Shown: one piece after another, positions 19,302 through 39,105 of the stretch
Layout: every line of letters begins with the position of its first letter
How positions within the stretch are numbered: position 1 is the stretch's first letter
NCBI GenBank assembly: GCA_003561895.1
Contig: PWXP01000101.1
Location: 1-39,260 of the forward strand
Reading direction: 5' to 3'
Length of the DNA: 39,260 nt
From: Planctomycetaceae bacterium
Lineage (GTDB): Bacteria > Planctomycetota > Planctomycetia > Pirellulales > Thermoguttaceae
Notes under the pieces: generated by a model
What the model was told of the DNA's origin: nothing
Seen by the model: only the letters and a program-made list of their open reading frames with translations
Database searches by the model: none
Translations under genes and position numbers: made by a program

Positions 19302-19372
19302 GTTGGAGTTCACGCTTCAGCGTGGCGGATTCCGCTTGTGCTTGGTTCGCACGCTGAAGCGTGAACTCCAAC
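19302..19372. mobile_element. Nested-palindrome repeat element, copy A (MITE/REPIN-like), flanked by an 8-bp direct duplication
   Basis: GTTGGAGTTCACGCTTCAGCGTG ... CACGCTGAAGCGTGAACTCCAAC. TTGACGGG occurs at both 19294-19301 and 19373-19380. Confidence 0.65.
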
Positions 19373-21273: not shown

Positions 21274-21307
21274 TTTCTCCTCGAACCCTCCAACCGCACC
21301 GCACCCC

Positions 21308-24366: not shown

Positions 24367-24372
24367 GAACTA

Positions 24373-24389
24373 GGGGGACTGTCCCCTTC
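24373..24389 (+). repeat. 17-nt palindrome-containing motif GGGGGACTGTCCCCTTC (identical copy at 30876-30860 on the minus strand)
   Basis: Read directly. It lies in the gap between the second permease gene and the first ATPase gene, 23 nt before ATG 24413. Confidence 0.8.
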
Positions 24390-24412
24390 ACTGCACCAAG
24401 AAGAACCCCGCC

Positions 24413-25429: not shown

Positions 25430-25450
25430 ACGCGCTGAAAGCAGCCCACT

Positions 25451-25520
25451 GTTGGAGTTCACGCTTTAGCGTGCCGGCGGTCGCGCACCGTCGCTCCGCA
25501 CGCTAAAGCGTGCACTCCAG
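25451..25520. repeat. Nested-palindrome repeat element, copy B (degenerate, no flanking duplication)
   Basis: GTTGGAGTTCACGCTTTAGCGTG ... CACGCTAAAGCGTGCACTCCAG, between the two ATPase genes. Confidence 0.8.
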
Positions 25521-25533
25521 CGAGGCCCCGGCC

Positions 25534-26559
25534 ATGACCTCTGCCCCAACAAACCATAAACCCATGTCTAACAGCCTGCTTACCGTCGACCGCCTGGAAA
25601 AGTACTTCCCGATCCGCCGCGGGCTGCTCTCGCGCGTGGTGGCCAACGTCAAAGCGGTCGACGACGTGAGCTTCGACATCGCCGAAGGGGAGACGCTCGG
25701 CTTGGTGGGCGAGAGCGGCTGCGGGAAGACGACCGCCGGCCGGACCCTCCTCCGCCTGCTGGACCCCACTGGCGGCACGGTCTGGTTCCAGGGCCGCGAC
25801 GTGGCCGCCGCCCGCGGCGACGCCCTCTGGCGCCTCCGCCGCGAAATGCAAATCGTCTTCCAGGACCCCTTCGGCTCGCTCAACCCGCGCATGACTATCC
25901 GGGGCATTGTCGAGGAAGGACTCGTCGTGCACCGGCTGGGTACAAAACACGAGCGGATGGAGAAGGTGCGCGAGACGCTCGAGCAGGTGGGGCTCGAACC
26001 CGGCTACATGAACCGCTACCCGCACGAGTTCTCCGGCGGCCAGCGCCAGCGCATCTGCGTGGCCCGGGCGCTGGCGCTGAATCCGCGGTTCATGGTGCTC
26101 GACGAGCCGATCTCGGCGCTGGACGTATCGATCCAGTCGCAGATCATCAACCTGCTGGTGGCGCTGCGCGAGAACTTCAAGCTAACCTACCTGTTCATCT
26201 CGCACGACCTTTCGGTGGTCGAGTACATTTCCGACCGGGTGGCGGTGATGTACCTCGGCCAGATTGTCGAGTTGGCCCCGGCGAACGTGCTGTACCGCAA
26301 GCCGCTGCATCCGTACAGCGAGGCCTTGTTGAGTTCCATTCCGACGATGGACCCCGCCACGCGGCGGGCGCGGATCGTGTTGCCGGGCGACGTTCCCAGC
26401 CCGGTGAATCCGCCCTCGGGCTGCCGCTTCCACCCGCGCTGCCCGCTGCGCGCGAAGCTGGCCCCGGCCGATCAGCGCCGCTGCCAGGAGGAGGTCCCTG
26501 CGCTGCGCGACCTAGCCCCCGGCCACCTCACCCGCTGCCACTTCGCCGAGAAGATGTAG
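25534..26559 (+). CDS. ABC peptide-type ATP-binding protein (OppF/DppF-like)
   Basis: [47 protein letters not shown]. The start is ambiguous (25534 or 25564); track start 25510 lies inside the repeat element. Confidence 0.9.
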
Positions 26560-26717: not shown

Positions 26718-28229
26718 TTATTTTGGCCCGTTCTCGTCGGCCGGTTCGGCAGCGGGTTTGGGGCGGTGCGGGGCTTGCCGGGCAAGGGCCTGGGCAAGGG
26801 CCTGGGAAAGGGCCTCGATCGGCGTAGGGTCGAGGTGGCGGTCGAGCAGCTTCGACGTGTCGCCGAAGAGGGTTTCGATCTGCCGCTGCACGTGCGGGTC
26901 GGACGAGCGGAGTTGGCTCCGGCGAGTGGTCAGCCGGCGGCGGAGGGTTTCGCGGTCGGGAAGCCGGTGCAACTGGTCGCGCACCTCGCGGGCCTCGTCG
27001 AGGCGCCCCGCCTCGAGCTGCGCCTCGGCGCGCGCGAGCAATACTTCGCGTCGCGTGACCGTGTCGACCAACTCTTCCTGCAGCGCGGTCACGAAGGCCT
27101 CGGCCTCCAGGCGTTGGGTGTCGTCGGGAACGTAGGCGGTCCAGTCGCCGGCGAACCCCGCCACCACGGGAAGCCGGGCCAGGAGTTGCTGCCCGCTGCG
27201 CACCAGCAGGATGGCCAGCGGGTCGCCGGTCGGGGCCACTTCCACGCTGCCGGACCGATCCGTACGGCCGAGCAGGCGGGTGGCTTTCTCGCCGGGGCGT
27301 TGGAGGAACACCTCGTAGCCGGCCATTGGGTGATGGGGTTCGCGGCGGGCGAGCAGGGTCAGCCGGGAGGGTTCGGGACGCGGCACGACGCCCAGGGCAA
27401 GCTGCTCGGTGCGCCCCCGCCGGCTGGCCGAAAGCGGCGCGCCCAGCCCGCTTTCCACCCGGCACGGCACCTCGGCCGCCTCGACGCCTTCGGCCACCAG
27501 GAAGGTCCACGGCACCGGTTGCGGCAGGATGGGGTCTCCGTCGCGATTGCGCCGCAGGCGGCCGTCCCGGTCGTTGAGGCGAATGACCGGGCAGAACAAC
27601 TGCCCGGCATGCGCCAGGTGCAATTCGGGGTCGCGCGTGGGCAGGCCGCCGGCGCGGAGGCGGAGCACGGTGCGCTGGCCGTCCGGGCCGGTCTCGACCC
27701 GATCGATCCGGGCCAGCGGGCGGAAGGCCTCCAGCACCGCGCGGACCGCCGTATCGCGCAGCTTGGCCGGATGCCGAACCGGATACGCGAGCACCGGCCC
27801 GAGCCGCCAGGTGGCCGCGTCCCATTCGCGCGCGTCGAGCCGCCAGCCGTCCGCCGCCGGCTCGACCCGTAGCAGCACGACCTTATCGTGGTCGCCGTCT
27901 CGCCACGCGTCGGGCAGGCGTGCGGCATCGGTGGCCCCGGCGGGCAATGCGGTGAGAACGTCCTTCGTCCCCACAGACTCGCTCCTAGTGACTAACGGCG
28001 CTCTGACCCCAGTCGCCTCTACCTGCCACGCGGCGCCGAAGAGGTTTTCCAGCCGCGGTGCAAGCTCCTCGGCAAGCTGATCGGCAACGGCCCGCAGTTC
28101 CGGCAGGTCTGCCGCGGCCACGAGAACGCGCACCCGGTACGGCGTCAGTTCCCACACCGACTGGGCCCGCACCGGCGCCGGGCCGGACAGCAGGAGCCAC
28201 ACGGCAGCGAGCAGAACCACGTGGCGCAT
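26718..28229 (-). CDS. Secreted hypothetical protein (503 aa), last gene of the ExbBD cluster
   Basis: Internal ATG 28229 gives the signal peptide MRHVVLLAAVWLLLSGPAPVRAQS. Composition is ordinary and the C-terminus is coiled-coil-like. No family recognised. Confidence 0.65.
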   Translation of the reverse strand: MRHVVLLAAVWLLLSGPAPVRAQSVWELTPYRVRVLVAAADLPELRAVADQLAEELAPRLENLFGAAWQVEATGVRAPLVTRSESVGTKDVLTALPAGATDAARLPDAWRDGDHDKVVLLRVEPAADGWRLDAREWDAATWRLGPVLAYPVRHPAKLRDTAVRAVLEAFRPLARIDRVETGPDGQRTVLRLRAGGLPTRDPELHLAHAGQLFCPVIRLNDRDGRLRRNRDGDPILPQPVPWTFLVAEGVEAAEVPCRVESGLGAPLSASRRGRTEQLALGVVPRPEPSRLTLLARREPHHPMAGYEVFLQRPGEKATRLLGRTDRSGSVEVAPTGDPLAILLVRSGQQLLARLPVVAGFAGDWTAYVPDDTQRLEAEAFVTALQEELVDTVTRREVLLARAEAQLEAGRLDEAREVRDQLHRLPDRETLRRRLTTRRSQLRSSDPHVQRQIETLFGDTSKLLDRHLDPTPIEALSQALAQALARQAPHRPKPAAEPADENGPK

Positions 28230-28450
28230 GTTGCAAGGCGGCGCGGCGCACGCCGGGTTGCCCCGGGCGTGCGGGCCGGGTTGTTCGGCGCGTGGGTGAA
28301 CCCGGCGGCTCCCACAGCCGGAATCACCCCTCCTGCGCGTGTTCAAAAACGGGACAGCCATCGGTCTTCTTAATGGGCCTAACTTGACCAGCGAAATCGA
28401 GCGGTTTCTGAAGGGAATCCCACCACACGCCGGGGTTTTTTCAGGGGCTT

Positions 28451-30835
28451 TCATGGGGAAGCGAAGCGGAACGCGGGCCGCCACGCTTCGACGTTCTGAT
28501 ACAGCGTGACGGGTTGCGGGCCCACGCCCTCCAGGTCGGTACGGTAGGCGAAGTGCTCAGTAAGCTGCCAAAGGGGAATGACGCTCACCTCGTCGTGGAC
28601 GGCGCGGTGAATGGTGTTCAGCGCCGCGCGGGCGGCGGGCCAGTCGGCGGCGTCGGCCAGGCGGCGGAGCCCAAGCTGCAGGTAACAGCTCCCGTGCGAG
28701 CACAGCCCGCCGGCACCGAAAAGCCGCGCGGCGTCGGCTACCGGCTCCCAGGCGGCCAGTTCGACGTACAGCAGGTCGACGCCCTCGGGGAACCGGCCCT
28801 GCTCGGCGCCGGCCATCTCCTCGGGCGTGAGCGGCCGAATGGAAACCGCGATGCCGAGCACCTCCAAGTGCCGCCCGATCAGGCTGCACGCGGCTTGGGC
28901 CATCGGGTGGTCGGGGTGTGCCAGCACGAGCGGCCCTTCCGTGGGATCCGCCCCCGCTGCGGCCCCATCCTCCGAGTGGTCGTCGTTTGCCGCCGCACTT
29001 TGATCGCCATCTTCGTTCGACTCTGACGCCGCCGCGCCCGCGCCTTTCGCCTCGGATTGCCGCGCTACGGCGGCAAGTTCGCGGCGGGCAACCGACGCCA
29101 GCGCGGCGGCGAGGTGCGGGTCGTACGGGCGGGGCGCGACCTCCGGGTCGCGGGCGTAGCCTCGGGGGAACGGCCCGTCGGCAACCTCGCAACCCGGCGA
29201 CTCGCCCTCGCCCAGCAGCCGGCGTAGGATGCGCTCGCGGTCGATGCCGTACACCAGGGCTCGCCGAAACGAGCGCCGCGATGTGAGGCCGCCGTTGGGC
29301 CGGGGGATGAGGCAGTGCACCAGCGGGAAAGCATAGGGTTCCACGGCAATCGCCGCGTCCGGCTGCGAGGCTTCCTCGCGCAATTCCGCCAGCATCCACG
29401 GCGCCACCCGGTCGATCACGTCGATCGTGCCCACGCGCAGCTCCGCCACGGCCCGGCCGGGCTCCATGCGCTGCTCGACGATTTCGGCCGGTTGCCCCGA
29501 CTGCCGGGCCGCATCGTGTTCACTGGCGGTAAACACGGCCTCGCCGTCTTGGCCGCTTGCCGCATGGTACGGGCCGTTGGCGGGTACCGGGTCGGGGGGG
29601 CCGGGCCAGGTGACCGGCGGCACAACGGTTTGCAGCAGCCGTTCCGGGCGCACGTGCACGCGGCCGAGTTCCACCTCGACGCCGTACACCCCGGTAACGC
29701 TCACGCCGGCCATCAACTCGGCCCAGGGCGTCGAAGAGCCCAAATCGCCCCCCGCGGCCAGCCGCAGCAGGTGCCGCGATACGTCATGGCCGGTCAGCGC
29801 CGCCGACCCGCTCGACCCAACCGCTCCCGGGTGCAATTCGAATACCAACCGCTGCCCCAGTTCCTCGGTGGCGAACCGGCCCAGCGGGGACAGGTACCGG
29901 CCGCCGTCGGTTCCCGGCGCAGTAAGCTCCATGAGCGTGCGATAGCGCAGGCGCGCCGTCCGGCGCGCCGGCCAGTCGACGAGGCTGGTGGGGGCGGAAC
30001 CAGGCCCGCCCAGGTCGCTTACCGCCACCACGACGCGGGGATACCGCGCGTGGACCTGCGCGGCCAGTTCTTTTGCCTCCGGCAGATCGGGCCAGACGGC
30101 GGCCGCCTCGCGGCACAGCCGGGAGGCGTCGCCAAGACGCTGTTCGGCCGTGGCGGCCCGGGCTTCGCCCAGCAGCTTTTCGGCTTGCCCCTCGAGCCGG
30201 TCTTCCCACCGGGCGACTAGTTCGTGTTCGGGGAACCACTCACCCAGGTTGCCGATCAGCGTCCGCACCGCGGCATAGTCGTCCCGCGCGGCGTAGTGGT
30301 CGACCAGACTGCCGGTGGCCAGGCCCAGGGCCTTGTCGAGCCCCTCGCGCTGCGGATTCCGGTGATAGGTTTCCCGGAGCATGGCCAGCGCCAGGTCGAA
30401 CCGGCCGGCGCGGTGGGCCGCCTTGGCCTCTTCATAAACGTACGTCTCCAACGCCTCGGCCAGGCCCGGCAGCTTCGCGTAGTGCTCCTGGAGGAACGCG
30501 AAGTAGTCGTACGCCTCTTCCAGCTTCCCCGCGGCCACCAGCCGCTCGGCCTCGGCGAGGACCCTCTGCTCGAACAGTTCGACCTTGTCGATGGCCTGCC
30601 AAGGCACCTCGTAGTCGACCCCCGGACGCGCCAGCAGACGCATGCGCAGCCGCTGGCCGCGCGGAGGGTCGGCCGGGACGACTCGGTTGGGGAAGTCGAG
30701 CGGCTCCACCTCCAGCACCGCCCGGTCGTTCGCCGCGTTGAGCGTGATCCGGTCGAACGGCTCCTGCTCGTACAGCGGCAAGTCGGCCGGGACCGGCGCG
30801 AGCATGGCGGCGATGAGGAGGGTGGAGAGGCTCAT
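28451..30835 (-). CDS. Secreted TPR-like plus family-5 solute-binding-protein-like fusion protein (794 aa)
   Basis: Start ATG 30835 forms an ATGA overlap with the upstream stop. N-terminal signal, a helical-repeat region (LEEAYDYFAFLQEHY, AHRAGRFDLALAML), and a C-terminal SBP_bac_5-like region (RRALVYGIDRERILRRLL, YDPHLAAALA, IPLWQLTEHFAYR). Confidence 0.75.
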   Translation of the reverse strand: MSLSTLLIAAMLAPVPADLPLYEQEPFDRITLNAANDRAVLEVEPLDFPNRVVPADPPRGQRLRMRLLARPGVDYEVPWQAIDKVELFEQRVLAEAERLVAAGKLEEAYDYFAFLQEHYAKLPGLAEALETYVYEEAKAAHRAGRFDLALAMLRETYHRNPQREGLDKALGLATGSLVDHYAARDDYAAVRTLIGNLGEWFPEHELVARWEDRLEGQAEKLLGEARAATAEQRLGDASRLCREAAAVWPDLPEAKELAAQVHARYPRVVVAVSDLGGPGSAPTSLVDWPARRTARLRYRTLMELTAPGTDGGRYLSPLGRFATEELGQRLVFELHPGAVGSSGSAALTGHDVSRHLLRLAAGGDLGSSTPWAELMAGVSVTGVYGVEVELGRVHVRPERLLQTVVPPVTWPGPPDPVPANGPYHAASGQDGEAVFTASEHDAARQSGQPAEIVEQRMEPGRAVAELRVGTIDVIDRVAPWMLAELREEASQPDAAIAVEPYAFPLVHCLIPRPNGGLTSRRSFRRALVYGIDRERILRRLLGEGESPGCEVADGPFPRGYARDPEVAPRPYDPHLAAALASVARRELAAVARQSEAKGAGAAASESNEDGDQSAAANDDHSEDGAAAGADPTEGPLVLAHPDHPMAQAACSLIGRHLEVLGIAVSIRPLTPEEMAGAEQGRFPEGVDLLYVELAAWEPVADAARLFGAGGLCSHGSCYLQLGLRRLADAADWPAARAALNTIHRAVHDEVSVIPLWQLTEHFAYRTDLEGVGPQPVTLYQNVEAWRPAFRFASP

Positions 30836-33800
30836 GGGGATGCGTGCGGTTGGACGGGCGAAGGGGACAGTCCCCCATCGGGCACCTTGACCCGATACAG
30901 GCTCCCGGCTCGGCCGCCTACGAGCACCTCGTTGCCGATGGGCACGGGGGCGGTGGCCAGGGGGCGGTGGAGTTCGATGCGGGCGATTTCGCGCCCGTCG
31001 GCAGCGTCGATGCGCCAGAGGGTCCCCCCGGCGGTTGCCAGCAGGAAATGCCCGCCGTCGAGCGCGGCCGCACCGACCGGCGGCGTGTTGGGCAGGTCCA
31101 CGCGCCAGCATAGCTTTGCCGCGGCGTCGAAGCACAGCAACTGCCCGGCCTCGGTGGCCAGCAGCGCGTGTTCGCCGACGCGCCGCGGCCCCCAGGCGAG
31201 GGGCGCGTCGAGCGACCATTGGTCGCGGCGGTCAAGCCCGGGCAGTTCGTAGGCGGTCACCTCGGAGGCTTCATCGACGGCGAACACCATGTCGCCCGCC
31301 GCGGCCAGGGGCGCGGCGATCGGCCGCGCCACCTCGACCGTGGCCGTGGCCTTCAGGTGCGGCTTCGGGTCGGGCTCCATTCGCACAGAATACAACGTCC
31401 CGTGCCCGTCGGTAACGGCCACGTGCCCGCCGTCGCCGGCGGCCGGCAGTCGCCAGTCGAGGCGGCTTTCCGGCGCCAGGGGGGGCTGGAAGGGCGCGGC
31501 CGGCATTTCGCCGGTGCGCGGGTTGAACAGGAACAAGTGGCCCGGCACGCACGGCAGCAACACGCCATCCAGAAAGGCCGATGGGGGGCAGGTCAGTTGG
31601 TCCGGGAGCGTGCGCCAGGTGTAACGTCCCGGCGGGTCGGCTGGGGTGAACACGGCAAGTTGGTCGGAGCCGGCGCCGGTCGAGAGCACCAGGGTGCCGT
31701 CGCTGAGTTCGACGACCGTTTCAACGGGGCGGCGGAATTGCCCGGATTCCACGGCCGGCCGGTCGAGCACGGACTCGTCGACGATGTCGCCGATTTCCGC
31801 TTGGAACAGCGCGCCCGTGCTGCTCGCGGCGACCACCTGTTCCCCTCCGAGGTCGACGACGGGCGGGCCGGCCGGCGGAGCGGCAATTCGGCTTTCCCAT
31901 AGCGGGCGCCCGTCGTCGGCGTGGACGGCGGCCACGATCACCCCCGGCTCACCCCGGCGCCGCCGCACGTGGACGAGGGCATTGCCGATCGCCCGCGGGG
32001 GCTCGAGGAATGCGCTCTGCTCGGCGCTGACCCACTGCGGCACCAAGCGGCCCTCGGCGGCCCGCACGGCGAACTTGGTCAAGTGGTTGTCGGCCAGGTA
32101 GAGTTGCCCTCCCTGAAACAGACCATAGCGCACCAGCGGCTCGCTATCGGTCGTCTCACGCTGCAGGATGGGTACCAGGGGTTCATGGGGTTCGGCCGCG
32201 GTCAGTTCGAACGCGTACGCCGCGCCCAGGTCGGTGATGGCGATGACATTCCGCCCGGCGAGCACGGGCGAGGTATCGAACAGCCCCCGCACGCGGAACT
32301 CTTGCAGCCGGCGCCGCGGCGCGGCGTCGGCTTGCTCGTCTTGCTCATCGCCGGACGCCGCGCCGGCCGACTCCGCCGGGGCAGTGCCGTACACGCGCAG
32401 CACGGCCGATCGCGCGCGATCGTTCACCGGCACCAGCAGGACGCCGGGCGCCGGCACCGGCGCCGCCGTGAGGCTGCCCTGCGCATGGCCGAGGTGAATC
32501 ACGTCGAGACATCGGCCGCTGCCCAACTCCAGCACGAACAAGTTCGAATGGTCGACCGCCTGGTAGATCAGCCCCCGGCGGGGATCGACCGCGGGAGCCA
32601 CGGGAATCGGCTGCGGCAATTGGATCTGGCGGACGGATGTCCCGGCTTCGGCGTCGACGAGGTGCAGGCGCCCGCCGCGGGTTGCCACGACGAGCTGCCC
32701 GCCGGCGAGCACGGGCGGAACGTCGACCGGTTCGCCCAGGGGGAGGCGCCAGCGGGGCCGGCCGGTTCGCGCGTCGAGCCGCCACAGTTCCCGAAGCGGC
32801 GGGGCCAGGACGAACACGTCGCCGCCCGCACCCGCGGCAACCGGGGCGACCGGCGCGCGGAGCCCGTCCGGCGCCTGGCCCAAATGGCGTTTCCACAGCA
32901 GCCGGCCGTAGGCGGCGTTGAAGCCGTAGGCGGCGCCCGCGGCCGCGGTCACCAGCACCTCGTCTTCCACGTTGGGAATCGGCTCCTTGGTGGTCCGCTC
33001 CGCAAGGGTCAACACGGCCGAAGCGGACCGCGCCGGCAACTGCGTACCGGCTTCGATCGCTTCCTCGGTCACCTGCACCGCCGACTGCTGCGCCGCCGAG
33101 ATGGTCCGCGTGGCCGCCATAAGCTTCGGATCGCCGGCCAGGGCGGGGTAGTTGCGGAGCAATTGGTGGCGAGTATCGTAGGCCGCCGCCGCGTCGCCTT
33201 CGGCCAGCGCGTTCTCGATGGCGGCCACGGCCGCGTCGAGTTCCGCGCCCTGGCGAATCTGCCGTTCGACCAGTCCGAGCCGGGCTTCGATCTCGTCGAA
33301 TTTTGCCGTGGGCTGCAAGCGCGTGGGGACATAGTTGCGGTTGCTGGCCATTGCGAGGGCCTCGCGCGCCAGGTCGAGCAGTTCCGGATCGTTGTCGTCC
33401 TGGGCGCGGTCGGCCAGTCCCTCGGCAATGGCCGGCAGGATGCCCGCCAACTCGCTGCCCGCCTCGCCAAAGGCGTCTTCCTGGGGGATTTCGTCGAGGA
33501 CCTCCTGGGCGGTGGCCAGGGCGGCGGGCCAATCGCCGCCTTCGAGGAGCTTCTGCCGCATTTGCGCGAGCCCCCGCCGCACCCGGGCGCCGCTCGCGCC
33601 CTGGTGCCGGGGGAACCGGCGAAGGTATTGGTCGAACTGGTGGATGGCCTGCGTGTACGATCCGGCCCGGTACTCCTCATTGGCGGCAGCCAGCACGTCG
33701 TCGCCCGACTGCCGCACCAGGATCCAAAGCACGATCCCCCCGAGGATCAGCAGCCCGAGCAAGGCCCCGCCGCTGAGCAACAGGACGGGCGATTCCCACA

Positions 33801-34515
33801 CGTTTTCCCGCCGCTTCGGCGCCGTGGTCCGGCGGCCCCGCTTTAGCCACCCGAACAGCCCGCGCCGCTTGCTCGGCAGGGGGGTCAACGGGCTGCCGGC
33901 CGCCGCCGCCGTGTCCATGGCGTCGCCGGCCAGGAGGCCGTCGAGCGGCCCGCCCGCCGAATCGAGCGAACCCAACTCTTCATCCAACAGCGAGGTGCTT
34001 GGCGACGGTTCGGGCTCCTTGGCGGCCTCTTTGGGGCCGGGGGCCGGCTGCTTCGGGCGCTGTTGGGCCGAGGCCGGCGGTGTCTTTGCCGGCTGCTTCG
34101 GGGCCTGTTTGGCAGGTTGCTTCGCAGGTTGTTTGGCAGGGGGCTTCGCCGGCTGTTTCGTGGCCTTGGCCGCCGGGGAACGCTTGGGCCGGTCCTCCTC
34201 GTCGAGCGGGGCCAAGCCCAAATCGTCTTCGTCGGCCGCCTCCGGGGCGGTTTCGGCCGCCGGCGCCTCCCGCTGCGGTTCCTCCGGCTCCCGCTGGGCG
34301 TCCCCTCCGCCGCCCTCCGATTCCGGCAGCGCGGCCAGCAACCGCTTGGCCAGGGCCGGCGTCAGGTGCCCGGCTTCGATCAGTCGCTTGGCCAAGGCCT
34401 CGGGGCGAACGGGTTTCGACGCCTTTGCCACTTGCTGCCGCAGGCTGGCGAGCAGTTTTTCGGGCAGCAAGTCGCGCGCGGCCAAAATATCAAGAAACTT
34501 CTTGGTCGAAGACAT
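30832..34515 (-). CDS. 1227-aa membrane protein: helical N-domain, Lys/Pro/Ala low-complexity linker, one TM helix, TPR-like region, PQQ/BamB-like beta-propeller repeats
   Basis: PAKQ-type repeats (aa ~118-150), TM VLLLSGGALLGLLILGGIVLWILV, and repeated patterns of the type G-x-L-x-a-l-D-x-x-T-G-x-x-x-W (e.g. LWRLDARTGRPRWRL, LHLVDAEAGTSV, LWRIDAADGREIARI). Confidence 0.8.
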   Translation of the reverse strand: MSSTKKFLDILAARDLLPEKLLASLRQQVAKASKPVRPEALAKRLIEAGHLTPALAKRLLAALPESEGGGGDAQREPEEPQREAPAAETAPEAADEDDLGLAPLDEEDRPKRSPAAKATKQPAKPPAKQPAKQPAKQAPKQPAKTPPASAQQRPKQPAPGPKEAAKEPEPSPSTSLLDEELGSLDSAGGPLDGLLAGDAMDTAAAAGSPLTPLPSKRRGLFGWLKRGRRTTAPKRRENVWESPVLLLSGGALLGLLILGGIVLWILVRQSGDDVLAAANEEYRAGSYTQAIHQFDQYLRRFPRHQGASGARVRRGLAQMRQKLLEGGDWPAALATAQEVLDEIPQEDAFGEAGSELAGILPAIAEGLADRAQDDNDPELLDLAREALAMASNRNYVPTRLQPTAKFDEIEARLGLVERQIRQGAELDAAVAAIENALAEGDAAAAYDTRHQLLRNYPALAGDPKLMAATRTISAAQQSAVQVTEEAIEAGTQLPARSASAVLTLAERTTKEPIPNVEDEVLVTAAAGAAYGFNAAYGRLLWKRHLGQAPDGLRAPVAPVAAGAGGDVFVLAPPLRELWRLDARTGRPRWRLPLGEPVDVPPVLAGGQLVVATRGGRLHLVDAEAGTSVRQIQLPQPIPVAPAVDPRRGLIYQAVDHSNLFVLELGSGRCLDVIHLGHAQGSLTAAPVPAPGVLLVPVNDRARSAVLRVYGTAPAESAGAASGDEQDEQADAAPRRRLQEFRVRGLFDTSPVLAGRNVIAITDLGAAYAFELTAAEPHEPLVPILQRETTDSEPLVRYGLFQGGQLYLADNHLTKFAVRAAEGRLVPQWVSAEQSAFLEPPRAIGNALVHVRRRRGEPGVIVAAVHADDGRPLWESRIAAPPAGPPVVDLGGEQVVAASSTGALFQAEIGDIVDESVLDRPAVESGQFRRPVETVVELSDGTLVLSTGAGSDQLAVFTPADPPGRYTWRTLPDQLTCPPSAFLDGVLLPCVPGHLFLFNPRTGEMPAAPFQPPLAPESRLDWRLPAAGDGGHVAVTDGHGTLYSVRMEPDPKPHLKATATVEVARPIAAPLAAAGDMVFAVDEASEVTAYELPGLDRRDQWSLDAPLAWGPRRVGEHALLATEAGQLLCFDAAAKLCWRVDLPNTPPVGAAALDGGHFLLATAGGTLWRIDAADGREIARIELHRPLATAPVPIGNEVLVGGRAGSLYRVKVPDGGLSPSPVQPHASP
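30860..30876 (-). repeat. 17-nt motif GGGGGACTGTCCCCTTC, second identical copy
   Basis: Read on the minus strand, 24 nt before ATG 30835. It lies inside the 3' end of the 1227-aa gene. Confidence 0.8.
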
Positions 34516-34571
34516 AAACCATCTCGTGGCATCTCGGAATTCGAAATTGTACCTTCCGCTCAGCTCGGCCC

Positions 34572-34641
34572 GTTGGAGTTCACGCTTTAGCGTGTGAATT
34601 GCACCGTCGCGTTATTCCGCACGCTGAAGCGTGAACTCCAA
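34572..34641. mobile_element. Nested-palindrome repeat element, copy C, flanked by a 7-bp direct duplication
   Basis: GTTGGAGTTCACGCTTTAGCGTG ... CACGCTGAAGCGTGAACTCCAA. TCGGCCC occurs at 34565-34571 and 34642-34648. Confidence 0.65.
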
Positions 34642-34689
34642 TCGGCCCGGCTGCGAAGCCTGTTTACGGCTCGCGGGACCGGCCGGCGC

Positions 34690-35196
34690 TTAAAAATCGT
34701 CCTCATCGACCGTGGCCAGCCTCAGGCTCTCGAACCCGACGGCGTTTCCGGCGTCCAAAACGCGAACGACCGTCTCGTGGCGGCATCCGGTATCGGCCAG
34801 CACGAGCAGCCGCGACGGGCCTGCATGCCGGGAGCCGGCGCCGGCGGAGCGGGCGGCGCGAAGTCGGACGAGCAGGTCCTGCTCGCTCGGCGCCTCGCTC
34901 TCACCCACCCAAACCGTGTTGTCCTTGTCGATCTGCACGACCACGTAGTCGGCGTCGTCTTCGATCTGCTGAATGGTCCGGGCCTGCTCGGCCTGTTCGG
35001 GGTCGGGCGTGGGCACCTCGATCGACTTCTGAAGGCTGAACGCGGCCGTGACCATGAAGAAAATCAACAACAGGAACGTCACGTCGACCATGGGCGTCAT
35101 GTCCAGCTCGTCGGCTTCGCGCCCGGCGCCGTTGTGGAAGCGCACCGGCGGCGCTTCGTCGCTGGGAACTTCGGGTTGTTTCGGCTGCGCGCTCAT
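34690..35196 (-). CDS. exbD: ExbD/TolR-family biopolymer transport protein (second copy)
   Basis: DELDMTPMVDVTFLLLIFFMVTA is the signature N-terminal TM. One-nt TGATG overlap with the upstream gene. Confidence 0.88.
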   Translation of the reverse strand: MSAQPKQPEVPSDEAPPVRFHNGAGREADELDMTPMVDVTFLLLIFFMVTAAFSLQKSIEVPTPDPEQAEQARTIQQIEDDADYVVVQIDKDNTVWVGESEAPSEQDLLVRLRAARSAGAGSRHAGPSRLLVLADTGCRHETVVRVLDAGNAVGFESLRLATVDEDDF

Positions 35197-35765
35197 CAGC
35201 GAATCTCGTAAACGCCCAGGTTCAACTGGATTCCCTCGGTTTCGGCCGCGGCGACCGCCTGGGTGATCCGGGCCACGTCGCGGTGCAGCACGCCCTTCTC
35301 GGCCTTCACCAGCACGGTGGCCAGCCCCTCCCTGTGAAACCCGGCCGATACCGCCCGGCGAATGATCGCCGCCTGCTCGGCGGGGTCGTCGGGCAGCGCC
35401 ACCCCGGCCTCGCCGCGCAGCGCCCGCTCGATGGCCGCTTCCTGCCCGGCGATATCGGCGGGCAGGGGCTGCCCGCTCTTCCCGTCGCTCAGGTATACTT
35501 TGGCCGCCTGCTGTCCCCCGCGCTCCGCCAAGGTGAAGACCACCGCCGACCGCGGATTGATGCCCGTGCCGTGCCGGGCCGGCGGCAGGTCGGCTTCTAC
35601 CTGCATGTCGGGAATCGACGCTACGAGGAAGAAAATCAGCAGCAGGAACACGATGTCGATCATGGGCGTGATGTCCATATCGACCGAATCGCTCCGCCGG
35701 CCGCGCCGCAGCAGGACATCGACCGTTTCATCCTGCTCGTGCGTTCCGGCCACTTCAACCGCCAT
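35196..35765 (-). CDS. exbD: ExbD/TolR-family biopolymer transport protein (first copy)
   Basis: VDMDITPMIDIVFLLLIFFLVAS. Overlaps the exbB stop by 11 nt. Confidence 0.88.
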   Translation of the reverse strand: MAVEVAGTHEQDETVDVLLRRGRRSDSVDMDITPMIDIVFLLLIFFLVASIPDMQVEADLPPARHGTGINPRSAVVFTLAERGGQQAAKVYLSDGKSGQPLPADIAGQEAAIERALRGEAGVALPDDPAEQAAIIRRAVSAGFHREGLATVLVKAEKGVLHRDVARITQAVAAAETEGIQLNLGVYEIR

Positions 35766-36453
35766 GGCCGCTCCTTTCCGCGGCCTCGGCCGGAGCCGCC
35801 CCCCGACCGCGCCTCGGCGCCAGCGCCGCCTTGAACGCCTCGAGGAACCGCGTCAGCCCGAACCCCACCAAGTCCTCCATCTCCCGGATGCGCACGTTCA
35901 CGCTTGCCCGGGCCAGCACCAGTGGAATGGCGATGGCCAGCCCGCAGGCGGTCGTGATCAGCGCCAGGCTGATGTCGTTGGCCAGGACGTTGGGCGAGAT
36001 TCTTTCCTGCTGTTCGCCGGCCAGCTTGCTGAACGCCCCCATCATGCCGATGACCGTGCCGAACAGGCCGACCATCGGCGCGCTCTTGATGACCGTTTCA
36101 ATCCAACTGAGCCGGTGTTCGAGGTCGGCCAGCACGTCGCGGCGGAACCGGTCGACCAGCAGGTCGCGCACCTTGGTAAAGCCGAGCTGCCGGTTCGATG
36201 CGGCCAGCAGGACGAGTTGGGGGAGGGCTCGCAAGTCGCCGTCGCACATCTGGCCGGCGGCCTCTACGTCGCCACCTTGAAGCTGATCGTCGAGCTGGTC
36301 GAGGAACTCCGATTGCTCCCGCTCGTCGCGGAATCGGATTTGCGCCACGCGCCGCCACACCATAATGACGCTGAACGCGCCCCACAGGGCGATCAGCGCC
36401 AACGCACTGTAAATAAGGATGGCCAAAAAGCCGGTTATCGCCGTCAAGTCCAT
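35755..36453 (-). CDS. exbB: MotA/TolQ/ExbB-family proton channel
   Basis: Three TM segments with APMVGLFGTVIGMMGAF and LALITTACGLAIAIPLVLA. Confidence 0.9.
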   Translation of the reverse strand: MDLTAITGFLAILIYSALALIALWGAFSVIMVWRRVAQIRFRDEREQSEFLDQLDDQLQGGDVEAAGQMCDGDLRALPQLVLLAASNRQLGFTKVRDLLVDRFRRDVLADLEHRLSWIETVIKSAPMVGLFGTVIGMMGAFSKLAGEQQERISPNVLANDISLALITTACGLAIAIPLVLARASVNVRIREMEDLVGFGLTRFLEAFKAALAPRRGRGAAPAEAAERSGHGG

Positions 36454-36474
36454 AAACTCCCTCTATCCTCGTGT

Positions 36475-37329
36475 CTATCGAAACATCTGATCGGTCACCC
36501 GGAACCGGTATCCGTTTCCGTGCGGGCTGATGCCGAAGCGGGTTCGGCGTACGTGGTCGGCCTCGCCGCCGGCGTGCTGCTTTTCCAGGTGGGCCAGTTG
36601 CGCCTCCACCTCCGGCGGCAGGAACTTCAGGATGACGCGACCCTGGGCGTCGATTCCCGCACGGGCCAGCAACTCGCGGTCGGCCTCGATCAACTCGCCG
36701 CCGCGCCAGGTGAGGTAGTAGCGCTTCTCGGCGTCGGCGGAGCCGGTTCGCCTGTCGGGTTTCGGCTTGACCAGGTTGTACGCGTACGTCACCCGATTGC
36801 CCGGCTCGAGCACGCCCAACTCGATCTGAAAGAAGTCGAGCTGCCGGGCGTAGGTTTCCAGCGTGTTGCCCCGCATGAAGGTCCCCTCCCACCGGCGCTC
36901 GACGCCGCCCTGCATTCCCCCGCCGCCCCCTTCGGCCGCCTCCCGCCCCGGCATGGGATCGCCGAACATCGCCGGCTGCGCCGACACTGCGTCAGCAACC
37001 GCTGCCAGCCGCTCGGTAACCTGCGGCTCGAACAGGTCGGTCTGGTCGAGTTCCGGCGCGCCGAGGTCGCGCTGCTCGCTCAGCGGGCTGTCGCTGGTGC
37101 CCACCTGCTCCAAGACGACGGGCACGGCGGCGCGGCTTACGAAGAATCGGCTGGTCAGCCACAGGGCCAGCAAAATCAGCACCGACAGGCCCACCAACAC
37201 CAGGGCCGCCAGCACCATGCTCAGGACCCGATCGTAGAGCGAGACCCGAAGCCCGTCTTGTGAGGAACCGTTCGACTTGGATGGGACTGAAACACTCACG
37301 GAAATCCGCTCAGTTTTGGAACTCGGCAT
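36475..37329 (-). CDS. Hypothetical single-pass membrane protein (284 aa) immediately upstream of exbB
   Basis: A TM helix MVLAALVLVGLSVLILLALWL follows a short cytoplasmic N-terminus, then about 200 aa of extracytoplasmic domain. The start overlaps the upstream gene by 20 nt. No family recognised. Confidence 0.6.
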   Translation of the reverse strand: MPSSKTERISVSVSVPSKSNGSSQDGLRVSLYDRVLSMVLAALVLVGLSVLILLALWLTSRFFVSRAAVPVVLEQVGTSDSPLSEQRDLGAPELDQTDLFEPQVTERLAAVADAVSAQPAMFGDPMPGREAAEGGGGGMQGGVERRWEGTFMRGNTLETYARQLDFFQIELGVLEPGNRVTYAYNLVKPKPDRRTGSADAEKRYYLTWRGGELIEADRELLARAGIDAQGRVILKFLPPEVEAQLAHLEKQHAGGEADHVRRTRFGISPHGNGYRFRVTDQMFR

Positions 37330-38944
37330 TGGGGCGCACCGCCCGGTACCACGCTTGCCATTGGCGCACCGCCGCGGCGCGCTCGGGGGGGCCCGGGGCG
37401 TCGAGCAGGCCGAAACCCGCCGGCCGGCGCGCCAGCCGCCGCAACGCGTCGCGCGCCGCTCGAACCACGCCGGCGTCGGGATCGTCGAGCGCTTGGATCA
37501 GTAGCGGCACCGCGTCCAGGTCGCGCCCGACGCCCAGGGCGCGTACCGCCGCGATGCGGGCCTGCGGCGAGGCGTCTTGGGCGAGCTGATGCAAACGGTC
37601 CGGCCGGCCTCCGAACACCCGCTCCGCTTCCTCCGGCGTCAGTTCGATCAACCGGTCGAGTGCGCGGCCGTAGCGGTCGTCGGCGGGGTCGTCAAGCATG
37701 GCGAGCAGTTCCTCGGCGGGCTCCATCAGCGGCCGGGCCACCACCCGGCCCCGCCGAACCTCCACCTGCTCGGTATCGCTCGGCAGACCGCGCCCGCCCA
37801 CCATCAGCCCCGCCCCCAGACCCTGCGCCTTGTCGATGCTTCGCTTCATCGACCGCATGAGGAACAGCAATGCGAACGCGGTATCGACGGTGTCGCCGCT
37901 CCGGCTGTTCCAACTGCCGGGCTGCCCCTGGGTTTGCACAAGAAAGCCGGCGCCGCTGCGGTACCAGGGAATGCGGTGGCCCTCGCCTTCATGCGCTTCG
38001 CGGAAGCTCATGTACCGCTCGAGGCCGTACAGGTAGTAATGCGTCCAGCCTTCCGGATCGGGCCGGAAGTTCTGGGCCATCCATTGATTCCCGCGGCGCT
38101 GGACTGCGCGAACCAGGGCGGGATCGATACGGGTGCGCGCCGGGCGTTCGGCCGGCTGGTCGTCCCGCACCTCGCGCAAGGCCGGGGGAATACCCTCCTC
38201 CCGCTGAGGTGCCCGCTCGGAAAGGCCCAGCAGATCGGCGCAGATATATAGGCTGCCCAGCCCGGCAACCGTCAGGCTCAGGCGGATCGACGACTGGGGC
38301 ACGGGCTGCCAGTTGGGCGAGACGACGCCCTGGTATCCGTACCCCCCGCTGGGATCCTGCGTGCGTAGGAGCCATTCGGTGAGGCCTTCGATCATCGGCT
38401 GCGGCACGGTGAATCCGGCCCGCCGGGCCTCCCACATCGCCAGGGCAACGTACTGCACCATGGAGGTGTCCCCGGTGGGCCGGTCGCGATAGCCCCAGCC
38501 GCCGTGCGGCTTTTGCGAGCGGCGGAGGATTTCCAGCAGCAGTTCGATTTCGCCGCGATAGGTGCTCGGATCGACTTCGAGCAGGAAGATAGTCGCCAGC
38601 CCCAAAGAGTAAATCTCGTTATTTTGCCGCAGTTCACCCGGGTCGCGCCCCTCCAAAGACCTCCGGATTGCCGCGGCGGCGTGCTGGACCTTCGGATGGT
38701 CCGAATTCGAGCCGTGTTTCAGCAGCGCCAGCCCCACGAGGGCCTGCCCACCTACTCGCCTTTCGTCGTCCGCGCCGGCTTCGATGAATTCGATTCCGCG
38801 TTCGATCGCCCGCTGCACCTGAGGGCTTTCCGGACCCAAGGGGCCGACACCGGCCTGACCACCGGCAACGCCGGGCGCGAGGGACGCGGCCGAGAGCAAC
38901 CCCGTTACCCAGGTCAACCTTACAAATCGGACTTCGCTTGGCAT
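37310..38944 (-). CDS. Secreted prenyltransferase/squalene-cyclase-repeat-like (alpha/alpha toroid) protein with C-terminal HEAT-like repeats
   Basis: Signal-like N-terminus. QW-like repeats SQKPHGGWGY, TQDPSGGYGY and TQGQPGSWNS. C-terminus RIAAVRALGVGRDLDAVPLLIQALDDPDAGVVRAARDALRRL. AGGAG SD 8 nt upstream. Confidence 0.75.
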   Translation of the reverse strand: MPSEVRFVRLTWVTGLLSAASLAPGVAGGQAGVGPLGPESPQVQRAIERGIEFIEAGADDERRVGGQALVGLALLKHGSNSDHPKVQHAAAAIRRSLEGRDPGELRQNNEIYSLGLATIFLLEVDPSTYRGEIELLLEILRRSQKPHGGWGYRDRPTGDTSMVQYVALAMWEARRAGFTVPQPMIEGLTEWLLRTQDPSGGYGYQGVVSPNWQPVPQSSIRLSLTVAGLGSLYICADLLGLSERAPQREEGIPPALREVRDDQPAERPARTRIDPALVRAVQRRGNQWMAQNFRPDPEGWTHYYLYGLERYMSFREAHEGEGHRIPWYRSGAGFLVQTQGQPGSWNSRSGDTVDTAFALLFLMRSMKRSIDKAQGLGAGLMVGGRGLPSDTEQVEVRRGRVVARPLMEPAEELLAMLDDPADDRYGRALDRLIELTPEEAERVFGGRPDRLHQLAQDASPQARIAAVRALGVGRDLDAVPLLIQALDDPDAGVVRAARDALRRLARRPAGFGLLDAPGPPERAAAVRQWQAWYRAVRPNAEFQN

Positions 38945-39076
38945 GGCTCAACTCCTAAGATAGGACCACCCGGCCACAGGCTCCACCAGTTATGCCCCAT
39001 TATAAGGGCCCGCCACGACTGCGAAAACAGTGTCCCTGGGGAAAAGCGGTACGGAACCCCTCGAGTCAAAACTTTC

Positions 39077-39105
39077 ATAGTAGGGCAATTTTGGGCAGTT
39101 GTCAA
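39077..39105 (-). promoter_or_regulatory. Candidate sigma-70 promoter of the ExbBD cluster
   Basis: On the minus strand: TTGACA (39105-39100), 17 nt, TACTAT (39082-39077), about 125 nt upstream of ATG 38944, in a lower-GC non-coding stretch. Confidence 0.45.

Follow-up and report, generated by a model that had tools for sequence, protein, structure and literature searches.

We lean, on balance, towards the view that a conserved gene cluster of Pirellulales encodes a dedicated motor driven by the proton motive force together with five partner proteins, and that these form a non-canonical Tol/Ton-like system of force transduction in the cell envelope. The eight genes (G1 to G8) stay together, all in the same orientation and downstream of a conserved promoter. 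In the window, which is the whole stretch of 39,260 nucleotides analysed, they lie co-directionally on the minus strand at 26718–38944 and comprise one MotA/TolQ/ExbB gene, two divergent ExbD/TolR genes and five partner genes, as follows.

39077–39105, minus strand: sigma-70-like promoter, TTGACA-17-TACTAT, about 130 nt upstream of G1.
37310–38944, minus strand: G1, 544 aa, N-terminal alpha/alpha-toroid-like region and C-terminal HEAT repeats (HEAT_2, 1.9e-8).
36475–37329, minus strand: G2, 284 aa (274 aa from GTG 37299), family-less bitopic membrane protein.
35755–36453, minus strand: G3, 232 aa, MotA/TolQ/ExbB-type proton channel (PF01618, MotA_ExbB, 5.6e-24).
35196–35765, minus strand: G4, 189 aa, ExbD/TolR paralogue 1 (PF02472, ExbD, 8e-13).
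34690–35196, minus strand: G5, 168 aa, ExbD/TolR paralogue 2 (PF02472, ExbD, 1.8e-22).
34573–34641, no strand assigned: copy C of a palindromic repeat, inside the 174-nt gap between G5 and G6.
30832–34515, minus strand: G6, 1227 aa, membrane-anchored TPR-like and propeller protein (PQQ_2/BamB-like, 3e-30, four stretches; TPR_16).
28451–30835, minus strand: G7, 794 aa, conserved N-terminal segment, TPR-like helical region and divergent family-5 solute-binding fold (SBP_bac_5, 5e-13).
26718–28229, minus strand: G8, 503 aa, signal peptide, no family by sequence.

All eight ORFs were found on the minus strand at the coordinates given by the sequence-only reading, an earlier interpretation of this DNA, and their third-position GC content of 0.81–0.86 is high, as in real genes. 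The partner domains claimed there were confirmed by Pfam and NCBIfam matches and by family profiles, with G2 and G8 left without a family. A hydropathy scan agrees with the proposed topology for G2, G4, G5 and G6, each with one transmembrane (TM) helix, and for G7 and G8, whose N-termini are hydrophobic, but the N-terminus of G1 is below the threshold of the scan. Among the four overlapping junctions proposed, G3/G4 (11 nt), G4/G5 (1 nt, TGATG) and G6/G7 (ATGA) are unambiguous, whereas G1/G2 hinges on the start codon of G2, being an overlap of 20 nt with ATG 37329 and a gap of 10 nt with GTG 37299, the start in the public gene call. A Shine-Dalgarno sequence, GGAAAGGAG, lies upstream of G4. 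The G5–G6 gap of 174 nt and the G7–G8 gap of 221 nt exceed what the sequence-only reading implied, but the corresponding gaps in relatives are far shorter (85 nt and 9 nt in L081). The G5–G6 gap folds at −87 kcal/mol (z = −6.1). The palindromic repeat within it occurs in three copies in the window, matches no Rfam family and is missing from 82 of 83 loci, L001 alone having one arm, right after its G5. Copy C is probably a genome-specific insertion, and it is possibly an RNA hairpin.

The promoter is the sole sigma-70-like match in 12.9 kb, but since shuffled sequences yield 0.6 ± 0.7 matches, it is weak evidence by itself. It gains phylogenetic support from four of the five relatives compared (L002, L003, L004 and L081), in which both hexamers and their spacing are kept while the flanks diverge; the hexamers are not retained in L001. 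Internal promoters could lie within the 174- and 221-nt gaps, but the conserved promoter and the short gaps of the relatives argue against the need for one.

Relatives of G2 occur in no fewer than 442 species genomes, and the best 80 relatives all come from planctomycete assemblies, those with a family or genus name being Pirellulales. Gene order was counted in the 47 loci that extend at least 9.5 kb beyond G2 on its downstream side; the canonical order holds in 36 and a variant order in 4, and G6, G7 and G8 lie downstream in the same orientation in 43, so the neighbourhood extends beyond the one genome in which it was first described. Of the 72 loci with 1.8 kb or more upstream of G2, 55 showed a G1 gene. 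The flanking genes vary by genome and include BREX genes, an AP endonuclease and a kinase. These data support the motor and its neighbours as a conserved unit rather than a chance adjacency, although some genomes show that the motor genes can part from the other five. The BREX genes, directly beside the cluster in one relative, raise the idea of anti-phage defence of the Zorya type, in which a MotAB-like motor works with effectors. Zorya uses a 5:2 motor. We regard this idea as very improbable: PADLOC models match only a generic HEAT repeat, the genes lack nuclease, helicase and other effector domains, and a cluster found in hundreds of species with a conserved order and no conserved neighbourhood looks vertically inherited, not like a mobile defence island.

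The best NCBIfam match of G3 is TolQ, and its closest solved chains are TolQ (1e-10) and then ExbB (1e-7). The TM2 and TM3 motifs of G3 are conserved across 73 orthologues, and G3 is presumed to form the pentameric part of the motor. The closest solved chain of G5 is TolR (3e-5), and the periplasmic domain of G4 carries an insertion. G4 and G5 share only 27% identity and are both kept across genomes. At least 95% of 71 G4 orthologues retain the TM aspartate, which is also conserved in G5; the aspartate and TM motifs of the motor were compared in 70–73 orthologues. Judged by sequence, G3 and the divergent G4/G5 pair bear the hallmarks of a TolQR/ExbBD motor, among them a proton-binding aspartate conserved in both ExbD-type helices. 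In other phyla, Ton systems often have an ExbB gene and two ExbD genes, and the three motor genes might simply serve a canonical TonB and receptors encoded elsewhere, with functionally unrelated neighbours. A few genomes without motor genes in the cluster and a view of this genome limited to 39 kb, along with the frequent separation of tonB from exbBD (PMC12204202), fit such an ordinary Ton system. It is nevertheless improbable, as the order and the five partners persist in those 43 of 47 informative loci, even at protein identities as low as about 40% and despite changing flanks, some motor/partner junctions overlap or are tightly spaced, and TonB and its receptors have been reported in only four planctomycete genomes (PMC3422733).

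The same two reports bear on the claim that the motor is TonB-less. No TonB_C, TolA, TolB_N, OmpA/Pal or receptor domain was detected in any tested ORF of the 39-kb window; none of TonB_C, TolA and Pal-type domains was found by sequence in the unknowns, in every family member scanned, nor by structure for G2. The claim stands for the window, but with tonB so often unlinked, 39 kb is a narrow basis for it, and the phylum literature is the better argument: besides the rarity of TonB, pal is recorded as absent from Planctomycetes (SI of PMC12204202), and non-TonB transducers have been proposed in PVC bacteria beside tolQ and two heterologous tolR genes (PMC12204202). The further statement that the cluster does not look like Tol was too strong, given that the nearest solved relatives of the motor are TolQ and TolR and that the fold of G8 weakly matches TolB. 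Compared with Tol-Pal, the cluster has a transducer-like protein, a propeller, a TolB-N-like fold and TPR repeats in parallel, minus Pal. No paper describing such a system was found in the literature.

G2 adjoins the motor in both gene orders. In two loci (L069 and L061), ExbB-ExbD-ExbD-G2 stand alone, with G2 the sole partner detected beside the motor and no G1 or G6–G8 found nearby, and in two others (L082 and L083) the order is G1-G2-G6-G7-G8 with no motor genes in between. On contig P0381, the same motorless set carries an unnamed gene for 188 aa where G2 would be. G2 is thus the hinge of the cluster, keeping company with the motor without the other genes and with the other genes without the motor. 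Its family comprises 1592 clusters and matches no Pfam or NCBIfam family. G2 has a short cytoplasmic N-terminus and a TM helix that carries the motif S-x-Y-[DE]-R-V-x-S...G...W, followed by a disordered Gly/acidic linker of some 85 aa and, at the C-terminus, an alpha/beta domain of 140 aa; topology and disorder are read from a predicted model with a pLDDT of about 90 for residues 136–273. An AVPV segment follows the TM helix directly in about 70 of 79 sequences. A Foldseek search of the PDB gave no structural match for the C-terminal domain (best E only 0.18).

This layout, with an N-in TM helix, a disordered linker and a globular periplasmic domain, resembles TonB and TolA. However, TonB and TolA bind their motors through an SHLS/His motif, which G2 does not have, a His occurring anywhere in the corresponding region in only 9 of 79 sequences, and the G2 linker, with 7% Pro, is unlike the Pro-rich type. 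Some lineages have G2 fused to a PilM-like (PilM/FtsA-type actin-fold) domain and others to a Ser/Thr kinase, in both cases at the same slot of the cluster; the N-terminus of G2 is therefore cytoplasmic. Such large cytoplasmic domains are not seen in TonB or TolA and fit a scaffold or sensor of the GspL/PilN type at least as well. The cluster might then encode a trans-envelope scaffold for a surface structure or for signalling, in which G2 is a PilN/GspL-like alignment protein or sensor, not a transducer that is pulled, and the motor, by analogy with AglRQS-Glt and GldLM, powers the building or movement of an organelle at the surface, such as pili, fibres, a holdfast or crateriform structures. 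The GspL-like architecture given by the PilM-type fusion, which is present as the same protein on contigs from two sources, the kinase fusions, the cytoplasmic part of G6 and the match of G8 to a flagellar outer-ring chain agree with this, as does the Myxococcus Agl motor, which likewise consists of one TolQ-like and two TolR-like proteins. We consider it doubtful, because the fusions are rare (2–3 of the best 150 clusters), G2 gave no match to PilN, PilO, GspL or GspM in Foldseek, and pilins, secretins, ATPases and outer-membrane proteins are all missing from the cluster; moreover, gliding is not known from Pirellulales.

G6 begins with a cytoplasmic helical domain of about 65 aa without a family match and a PAKQ-rich linker, so that about 240 cytoplasmic residues precede a single TM helix at about residues 249–267. 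The periplasmic part contains a TPR-like region and BamB/PQQ-type beta-propeller repeats (residues 516–1210), matching BamB-like chains in the PDB, and the architecture is the same in homologues. G1 is probably secreted, although its N-terminus is only plausibly a signal peptide. Apart from a weak SQHop_cyclase_C match, its family profile matches alphaRep/HEAT (2e-32), squalene-hopene cyclase (1.7e-5) and the alpha2-macroglobulin thioester domain (4e-4). The family profile of G7 matches solved SBP5 proteins at 6e-12, and its TPR matches are weak (E 0.08–0.3).

The solute-binding fold of G7, genuine though divergent, speaks for an uptake machine, the role suggested in the sequence-only reading, in which the motor would energise the capture or import of peptides, oligosaccharides or other polymers, or their handling at the surface, with G7 as ligand receptor and the propeller and TPR proteins as conduit. 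Energy-dependent uptake of macromolecules has been reported for planctomycetes, and such a machine could relate to it. Alpha/alpha toroids such as that of G1 frequently bind glycans or lipids, an Opp-type ABC importer adjoins the cluster in the window, and an alternative energised route would be sensible in a phylum in which classical TonB-dependent uptake is rare. However, the Opp transporter is not a conserved neighbour of the cluster across genomes, the cluster has neither an outer-membrane channel nor a permease, and solute-binding folds also serve as scaffolds and sensors without a role in transport, so that we regard uptake as unlikely, if less so than a surface structure.

G8 has an alpha/beta region (31–191), a beta-rich region (211–367) and a weakly TPR-like helical C-terminal region (371–485). 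Its predicted model (pLDDT 90.3, pTM 0.83) matches a chain of 352 residues from the Vibrio LPHT ring (E 7e-8) and TolB of A. baumannii (E 9e-7) in Foldseek, with TM-scores of only 0.16–0.25. Both are periplasmic partners in systems powered by the same motor family. The fold match is weak and finds no counterpart in the sequence searches.

In the favoured force-transduction reading, the motor would have a 5:2 stoichiometry, with a heterodimer of G4 and G5 forming the axle, and G2, on account of its TonB/TolA-like layout, would act as the force transducer. The conserved short segment just outside the membrane in G2 could serve as a motor box, and the C-terminal domain may engage a periplasmic scaffold composed of the TPR and BamB-like propellers of G6, the putative TolB/FlgT-like fold and helical repeats of G8, the helical repeats and solute-binding fold of G7, and the alpha/alpha toroid and HEAT repeats of G1. 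The motor genes missing from the cluster in some genomes count against this reading, as does the lack of an outer-membrane component or peptidoglycan-binding domain in the cluster. Since the products show no detectable enzyme, outer-membrane barrel or peptidoglycan-binding domain and consist mostly of scaffold domains for protein interaction, the most likely task of the motor is to remodel or move an assembly of periplasmic proteins. Because the domain inventory resembles Tol-Pal without Pal, we prefer as its role the maintenance of the envelope, coordinating outer membrane, wall and inner membrane, but this is a guess that we hold only tentatively. Motors of this type normally power TonB or Tol systems, and the cluster may represent an envelope machine of a new kind that transmits force, in a phylum for which the absence of Pal and, mostly, of TonB has been reported.

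The minus strand carries eight open reading frames (ORFs) with gene-like GC content by codon position, running from 38944 down to 26718 and designated G1 (first) to G8 (last).

G1: 37310-38944, minus strand; 544 aa, HEAT repeats and a weak squalene-cyclase-like signal (Pfam/NCBIfam)
G2: 36475-37329, minus strand; 284 aa, matches no family (Pfam/NCBIfam)
G3: 35755-36453, minus strand; 232 aa, MotA/TolQ/ExbB (PF01618, 5.6e-24)
G4: 35196-35765, minus strand; 189 aa, ExbD (PF02472, 8e-13)
G5: 34690-35196, minus strand; 168 aa, ExbD (PF02472, 1.8e-22)
G6: 30832-34515, minus strand; 1227 aa, BamB/PQQ-type propeller repeats (3e-30) and TPR_16
G7: 28451-30835, minus strand; 794 aa, SBP_bac_5 (PF00496, 5e-13)
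G8: 26718-28229, minus strand; 503 aa, matches no family (Pfam/NCBIfam)

G3, G4 and G5 make up the motor and the other five products are its partners. A hydropathy scan places one transmembrane (TM) helix in each of G2, G4, G5 and G6 and a hydrophobic N-terminus in each of G7 and G8; the N-terminus of G1 lies below the scan threshold, and no lipobox cysteine is found in the N-termini of G1, G7 and G8. The domain calls of G1 and G7 were sharpened with family profiles built from their orthologues. For G1, the profile finds HEAT/alphaRep proteins (2e-32) and, through its N-terminal half, squalene-hopene cyclase (1.7e-5) and the alpha2-macroglobulin thioester domain (4e-4). The SBP_bac_5 fold of G7 is above the gathering score, and the profile of its family finds solved family-5 binding proteins at 6e-12. 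Since the domain calls and the hydropathy scan agree with it, the anatomy that the sequence-only reading had assigned to the eight proteins is correct. A weak CpoB/YbgF match in G6 (E = 1.2e-4, NCBIfam) is under the family cut-off, and all 32 G6 homologues have the same propeller domain families, with no informative extra domain. A by-eye resemblance of the G6 N-terminal domain to the c-di-GMP-binding MshEN/T2SSE_N type was dropped, as Pfam lends it no support even with E relaxed to 5. Apart from the solute-binding G7, the partner families (four of the five) stay under every curated family cut-off over their distinctive parts. Besides G2, the non-motor products comprise TPR, HEAT and propeller scaffolds, a single ligand-binding fold (SBP5) and a single toroid; no enzyme, outer-membrane barrel or peptidoglycan-binding domain is detected in any of the eight proteins.

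The G-x-x-G-T-V-x-G-M and A-L-x-T-T-x-x-G-L-x-x-A-I-P motifs in TM2 and TM3 of G3 are retained among 73 orthologues, and at least 95% of the 70-71 orthologues of each of G4 and G5 keep the proton-binding TM aspartate of the T-P-M-[IV]-D segment. Because G4 and G5 are only 27% identical and both are kept across genomes, they are likely to form a heterodimeric axle. The solved chains closest to the motor proteins are TolQ (1e-10) and TolR (3e-5), with ExbB and ExbD a little behind, and NCBIfam also favours TolQ/TolR, with every score far below the equivalog cut-offs.

The sequence-only reading placed these genes in one operon with start/stop overlaps at four junctions. Three of the overlaps are unambiguous, namely 11 nt at G3/G4 with a good Shine-Dalgarno sequence, 1 nt at G4/G5, and ATGA at G6/G7, but that at G1/G2 hinges on the start codon chosen. 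The site TTGACA-17-TACTAT at 39105-39077 is the sole sigma-70-like site in 12.9 kb; shuffled sequence gives 0.6 such sites, so the match by itself says little. Alignment of the upstream regions of five relatives shows that the hexamers and their spacing are retained in L002, L003, L004 and L081 amid diverged flanks but not in L001. Since they are kept while the surrounding sequence diverges, there is reasonable phylogenetic support for the promoter proposed at 39077-39105. In the 5' leader (38945-39076), a short block, GCTYTTCC ... CACT, is retained in the aligned regions of L002, L004 and L081 and could be a regulatory site. A riboswitch or other known RNA in the leader or the gaps was rejected, as an Rfam search of the whole window gave zero matches.

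The 174-nt gap between G5 and G6 is filled by a 69-nt palindromic repeat, which has three copies in the window (19303-19371, 25452-25520 and 34573-34641), every one of them intergenic. Its arms of about 22 nt (GTTGGAGTTCACGCTTYAGCGTG...) flank a variable centre, and the G5-G6 gap, which holds the third copy, folds at -87 kcal/mol (z = -6.1). One repeat arm lies directly after G5 in the nearest relative (L001:5322-5336). The repeat is probably a REP/MITE-like element; no Rfam family was found for it. An internal promoter in this gap was rejected because a sigma-70-like scan of the 174 nt is negative, a non-consensus promoter being possible there, and because the repeat insertion explains the gap, which is much shorter in most relatives (85 nt in L081). 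The G7-G8 spacer (28230-28450) is 221 nt long in the window as against 9 nt in L081, about 57 nt separate the matched regions in L004, and no promoter-like or terminator-like site is seen in 28230-28450. Internal promoters within G1-G8, though possible, need not be assumed.

TonB, TolA, TolB, Pal and TonB-dependent receptors are absent from all gene-like and leftover long ORFs of the 39-kb window, and no OmpA-like domain is found in any window ORF tested. Outside the cluster, the ORFs specify housekeeping enzymes, a sigma-54 activator, an importer of the Opp type and a pair resembling an ABC exporter. A hidden TonB_C, TolA, TolB_N or Pal domain in G2 or G8 was also rejected by Pfam and NCBIfam searches of the window proteins and by Pfam searches at E up to 1 of 29 G2 and 35 G8 family members. 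The claim that neither cluster nor window holds anything of this kind is thus borne out for these 39 kb. Since exbBD and tonB frequently lie apart (PMC12204202), the published record says more than the window does: TonB together with receptors was detected in only four planctomycete genomes by Speth et al. (PMC3422733), and pal is recorded as absent from Planctomycetes in the supplement of Williams-Jones et al. (PMC12204202).

The Opp/Dpp-type importer (19525-26559, plus strand), with one SBP5 protein and two each of permeases and ATPases, converges on G8. The ORF of the first permease encodes 668 aa, of which about 450 precede the permease domain, and it begins 149 nt inside the SBP5 gene, so its start may be miscalled. 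Across 80 related loci, the Opp genes have only two marginal tblastn matches, at 22-25% identity, and G7 is not associated with ABC permease or ATPase genes in related loci, being fixed between G6 and G8 instead. A functional tie between the cluster and this transporter was rejected because the transporter is not conserved beside the cluster.

The homologues of G2 are all unnamed proteins, and their named sources are almost always planctomycete. A G2 profile search of 1.84 billion representatives gave 1592 clusters, 591 of them below 1e-30, and a scan of one genome per species showed that at least 442 genomes encode a G2 relative. The best 80 of the 442 are all planctomycete assemblies (80/80); where an assembly carries a family or genus name, it is Thermoguttaceae, Pirellulaceae, Thermogutta, Rhodopirellula or Blastopirellula, all within Pirellulales. 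When the eight window proteins were placed on related loci with tblastn, 47 loci extending at least 9.5 kb downstream of G2 were informative. The canonical order, G(1)-2-3-4-5-6-7-8, is found in 36 of them and the variant order G1-G3-G4-G5-G2-G6-G7-G8 in four, and G6-G8 lie downstream of G2 in a single orientation in 43 of the 47, down to about 40% identity. The flanks vary by genome, with an AP endonuclease and a kinase at L082 and BREX genes at L081; in L081:1-7745, a BREX-type defence locus with an MmeI-type methyltransferase, PglZ and BrxL lies directly upstream of the cluster. Since the gene order is held, the flanks vary and the Opp transporter is not conserved alongside, the eight genes are, as judged from these comparisons, a discrete inherited unit.

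Partial versions of the cluster also occur. L082 (8409-18808) and L083 carry a motor-less set, G1-G2-G6-G7-G8, and a more distant contig, which encodes the protein P0381, has the same genes except that an unnamed gene of 188 aa takes the place of G2; ExbB and ExbD genes are missing between the members of both sets. A minimal version, ExbB-ExbD-ExbD-G2 only, is present at L069:8109-10825 and L061:8110-10825, where G1 and G6-G8 are not detected within 10 kb downstream of G2 or in the adjoining upstream DNA. The second ExbD of these two loci opens with a zinc-ribbon-like CxxC...CxxC segment (MIRFPCPACG...CTNC). G2 also adjoins the motor genes in both common gene orders. Because it stays with the partners in the motor-less loci, with the motor in the minimal loci and next to the motor in both orders, G2 keeps company with either half of the cluster, as expected of a coupling protein.

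The model of G2 (274-aa form) consists of a long TM helix (21-56), a disordered stretch (56-133) and an alpha/beta domain (136-273) with a pLDDT of about 90. Among 79 orthologues, the helix bears the motif L-x-V-S-x-Y-[DE]-R-V-x-S...G...W with an invariant acidic residue, about 70 have an A-V-P-V-x-[LM]-E-x-[IV]-G segment some 10 residues past the helix, and the disordered linker, 84 residues long on average, is 18% Gly and 7% Pro. This layout of a helix, a conserved juxtamembrane segment that may correspond to the motor box, a disordered spacer and a globular head resembles the one described for TonB, TolA and the recently proposed transducers with a vWA domain, but G2 lacks their SHLS/His motif and its head differs: S-x3-H-x6-L-x3-S is not found in G2, and a His occurs in that region in only nine of the 79 sequences. 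A Foldseek search with the C-terminal domain gives no significant PDB match (best E = 0.18, TM-score at most 0.17); the top matches, GHKL ATPase domains at E of about 0.2 and a TM-score of at most 0.17, were treated as noise. Pfam, searched to E = 1 with 29 members of the family, gives zero matches, and no TonB_C or TolA_C fold is seen.

N-terminal fusions are present in three of the 150 best G2 clusters, one to a PilM/FtsA-type actin-fold domain and two to a Ser/Thr kinase, one of the latter being a fragment. Both the PilM fusion and the complete one of the two kinase fusions occupy the usual G2 slot in otherwise typical clusters: G1-[PilM~G2]-ExbB-ExbD-ExbD-propeller giant-SBP5-G8 on contigs from two sources (L084:10001-11950 and L085:2055-4004), and G1-[kinase~G2] at L086:2081-4039. 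By their position in the normal slot, these predicted fusion proteins fix the N-terminus of G2 in the cytoplasm. Taken at the level of the encoded proteins, they show that G2, unlike TonB and TolA, can communicate with cytoplasmic machinery, and they keep open a GspL/PilN-like scaffold or sensor role for it.

The model of G8 (pLDDT 90.3, pTM 0.83) comprises an alpha/beta region (31-191), a beta-rich region (211-367) and a helical C-terminus (371-485). Foldseek matches it best to a chain of 352 residues in the LPHT flagellar ring of Vibrio (E = 7e-8, probability 1.0). The ring entry containing this chain, 8z5n_0, includes FlgH, FlgI, FlgT, FlgP, MotX and MotY, and the chain is presumably FlgT, whose N-domains are TolB-N-like. 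TolB of A. baumannii is also matched (E = 9e-7, probability 0.99, TM-score 0.16-0.20). Both matches are periplasmic partners in systems driven by the motor's family. Since the TM-scores of the fold matches are only 0.16-0.25 and sequence support is absent, the modelled likeness of G8 to TolB and the ring chain is a lead and not a classification; TolB_N is not found in 35 G8 family members (Pfam, E up to 1).

Compared with Tol-Pal, the cluster has motor subunits whose closest solved relatives are TolQ and TolR, a periplasmic beta-propeller in G6, a tentative TolB fold match in G8 and TPR-like modules, including the weak CpoB/YbgF match of G6. It differs in having no Pal or OmpA-like peptidoglycan-binding lipoprotein and two unlike TolR-like subunits, and G2 has neither the TolA C-terminal fold nor the SHLS motif. 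The propeller is of the BamB/PQQ type and membrane-anchored on the 1227-aa G6, whereas TolB is a soluble protein with TolB_N and a six-bladed propeller; G1 and G7 are extra and have no Tol counterpart. Outside the motor, no sequence homology to Tol-Pal is detected apart from the sub-threshold CpoB match. The cluster shares the motor family with Ton, G2, as candidate transducer, has a TonB-like layout, and one ExbB gene with two ExbD genes is a Ton arrangement known in other phyla. However, it lacks TonB_C in sequence and structure, the SHLS/His motif, a Pro-rich spacer and a nearby receptor, and an ordinary Ton motor with unrelated neighbours is unlikely. That the cluster is a defence system is hardly credible, as PADLOC returns only a generic HEAT-repeat match for G1, and ZorA/ZorB and the other defence models are unmatched.

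The AglRQS-Glt system of Myxococcus has one TolQ-like and two TolR-like proteins, bitopic inner-membrane proteins with cytoplasmic parts, and periplasmic TPR proteins. The cluster resembles it in these respects, with one TolQ-like and two TolR-like subunits, bitopic proteins and periplasmic TPR modules, but has no equivalents of the TonB_C-bearing GltG and GltJ, no outer-membrane Glt barrels and no homology detected outside the motor; Pirellulales are not known to glide. The Vibrio H/T ring (FlgT, MotX and MotY), which holds the PomAB stator, is likewise a periplasmic assembly associated with a motor of the same family, and the best structural match of G8 is a chain of the LPHT ring, but the cluster has no flagellar genes and the TM-scores of G8 are low. 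The proposed vWA transducers (PMC12204202) belong to the same superphylum; there, as in the cluster, a TolQ-like gene and two dissimilar TolR-like genes accompany a TPR protein and a TM-linker-globular protein distinct from TonB and TolA. The C-terminal domain of G2 is not vWA by Pfam and Foldseek (no vWA domain is found in any of the eight proteins), the vWA proteins keep the SHLS motif that G2 lacks, and the partners here are a propeller giant, an SBP5 fusion, a toroid-HEAT protein and a TolB/FlgT-like protein. Since non-TonB transducers on TolQR-type motors in PVC bacteria were published as a concept in 2025 by Williams-Jones et al. (PMC12204202), the G1-G8 cluster is not a categorically new system. 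A literature search on Planctomycetes, Rhodopirellula and crateriform structures with ExbB, ExbD, TonB and beta-propeller found no description of the cluster; R. baltica exbB (RB12053) and exbD (RB12055) are reported to be salt-induced together with pilus genes (PMC2754498).

The best-supported reading is that G1-G8 would form a dedicated proton-driven force-transduction system, in which G2 would link the motor to a periplasmic assembly. A motor like TolQR, a protein laid out like TolA, a propeller, a fold resembling TolB and TPR modules together parallel Tol-Pal minus Pal, in a phylum reported to lack Pal, and for this reason a role in envelope maintenance is tentatively preferred. The uptake machine suggested by the sequence-only reading ranks after envelope maintenance and is rather doubtful, and a surface-structure or signalling-scaffold role comes after uptake as less probable still.

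In two-membrane bacteria, TolQR/ExbBD/MotAB motors energise the periplasm and the outer membrane, compartments that have no energy of their own, and new sets of motor partners have so far each given new envelope biology, as in Ton, Tol, flagella, gliding, type 9 secretion and Zorya. The planctomycete envelope is unusual in its enlarged periplasm, the reported absence of pal and the finding of TonB in only four surveyed genomes, and many planctomycetes divide by budding. It is possible, if far from assured, that the cluster is a planctomycete replacement for a missing energised envelope system, either a stand-in for Tol-Pal or an energiser of the macromolecule uptake observed in planctomycetes, built around G2 as a new class of transducer. 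If this is true, the transducer would have a periplasmic head without a structural match and a cytoplasmic end that can carry an actin-fold or kinase domain. With one motor, the hinge G2 and four scaffold proteins, the cluster is a conserved and deletable candidate for energising the planctomycete outer envelope, and G2, as a candidate transducer with neither TonB_C nor vWA, would widen the range of couplings available to this motor family.
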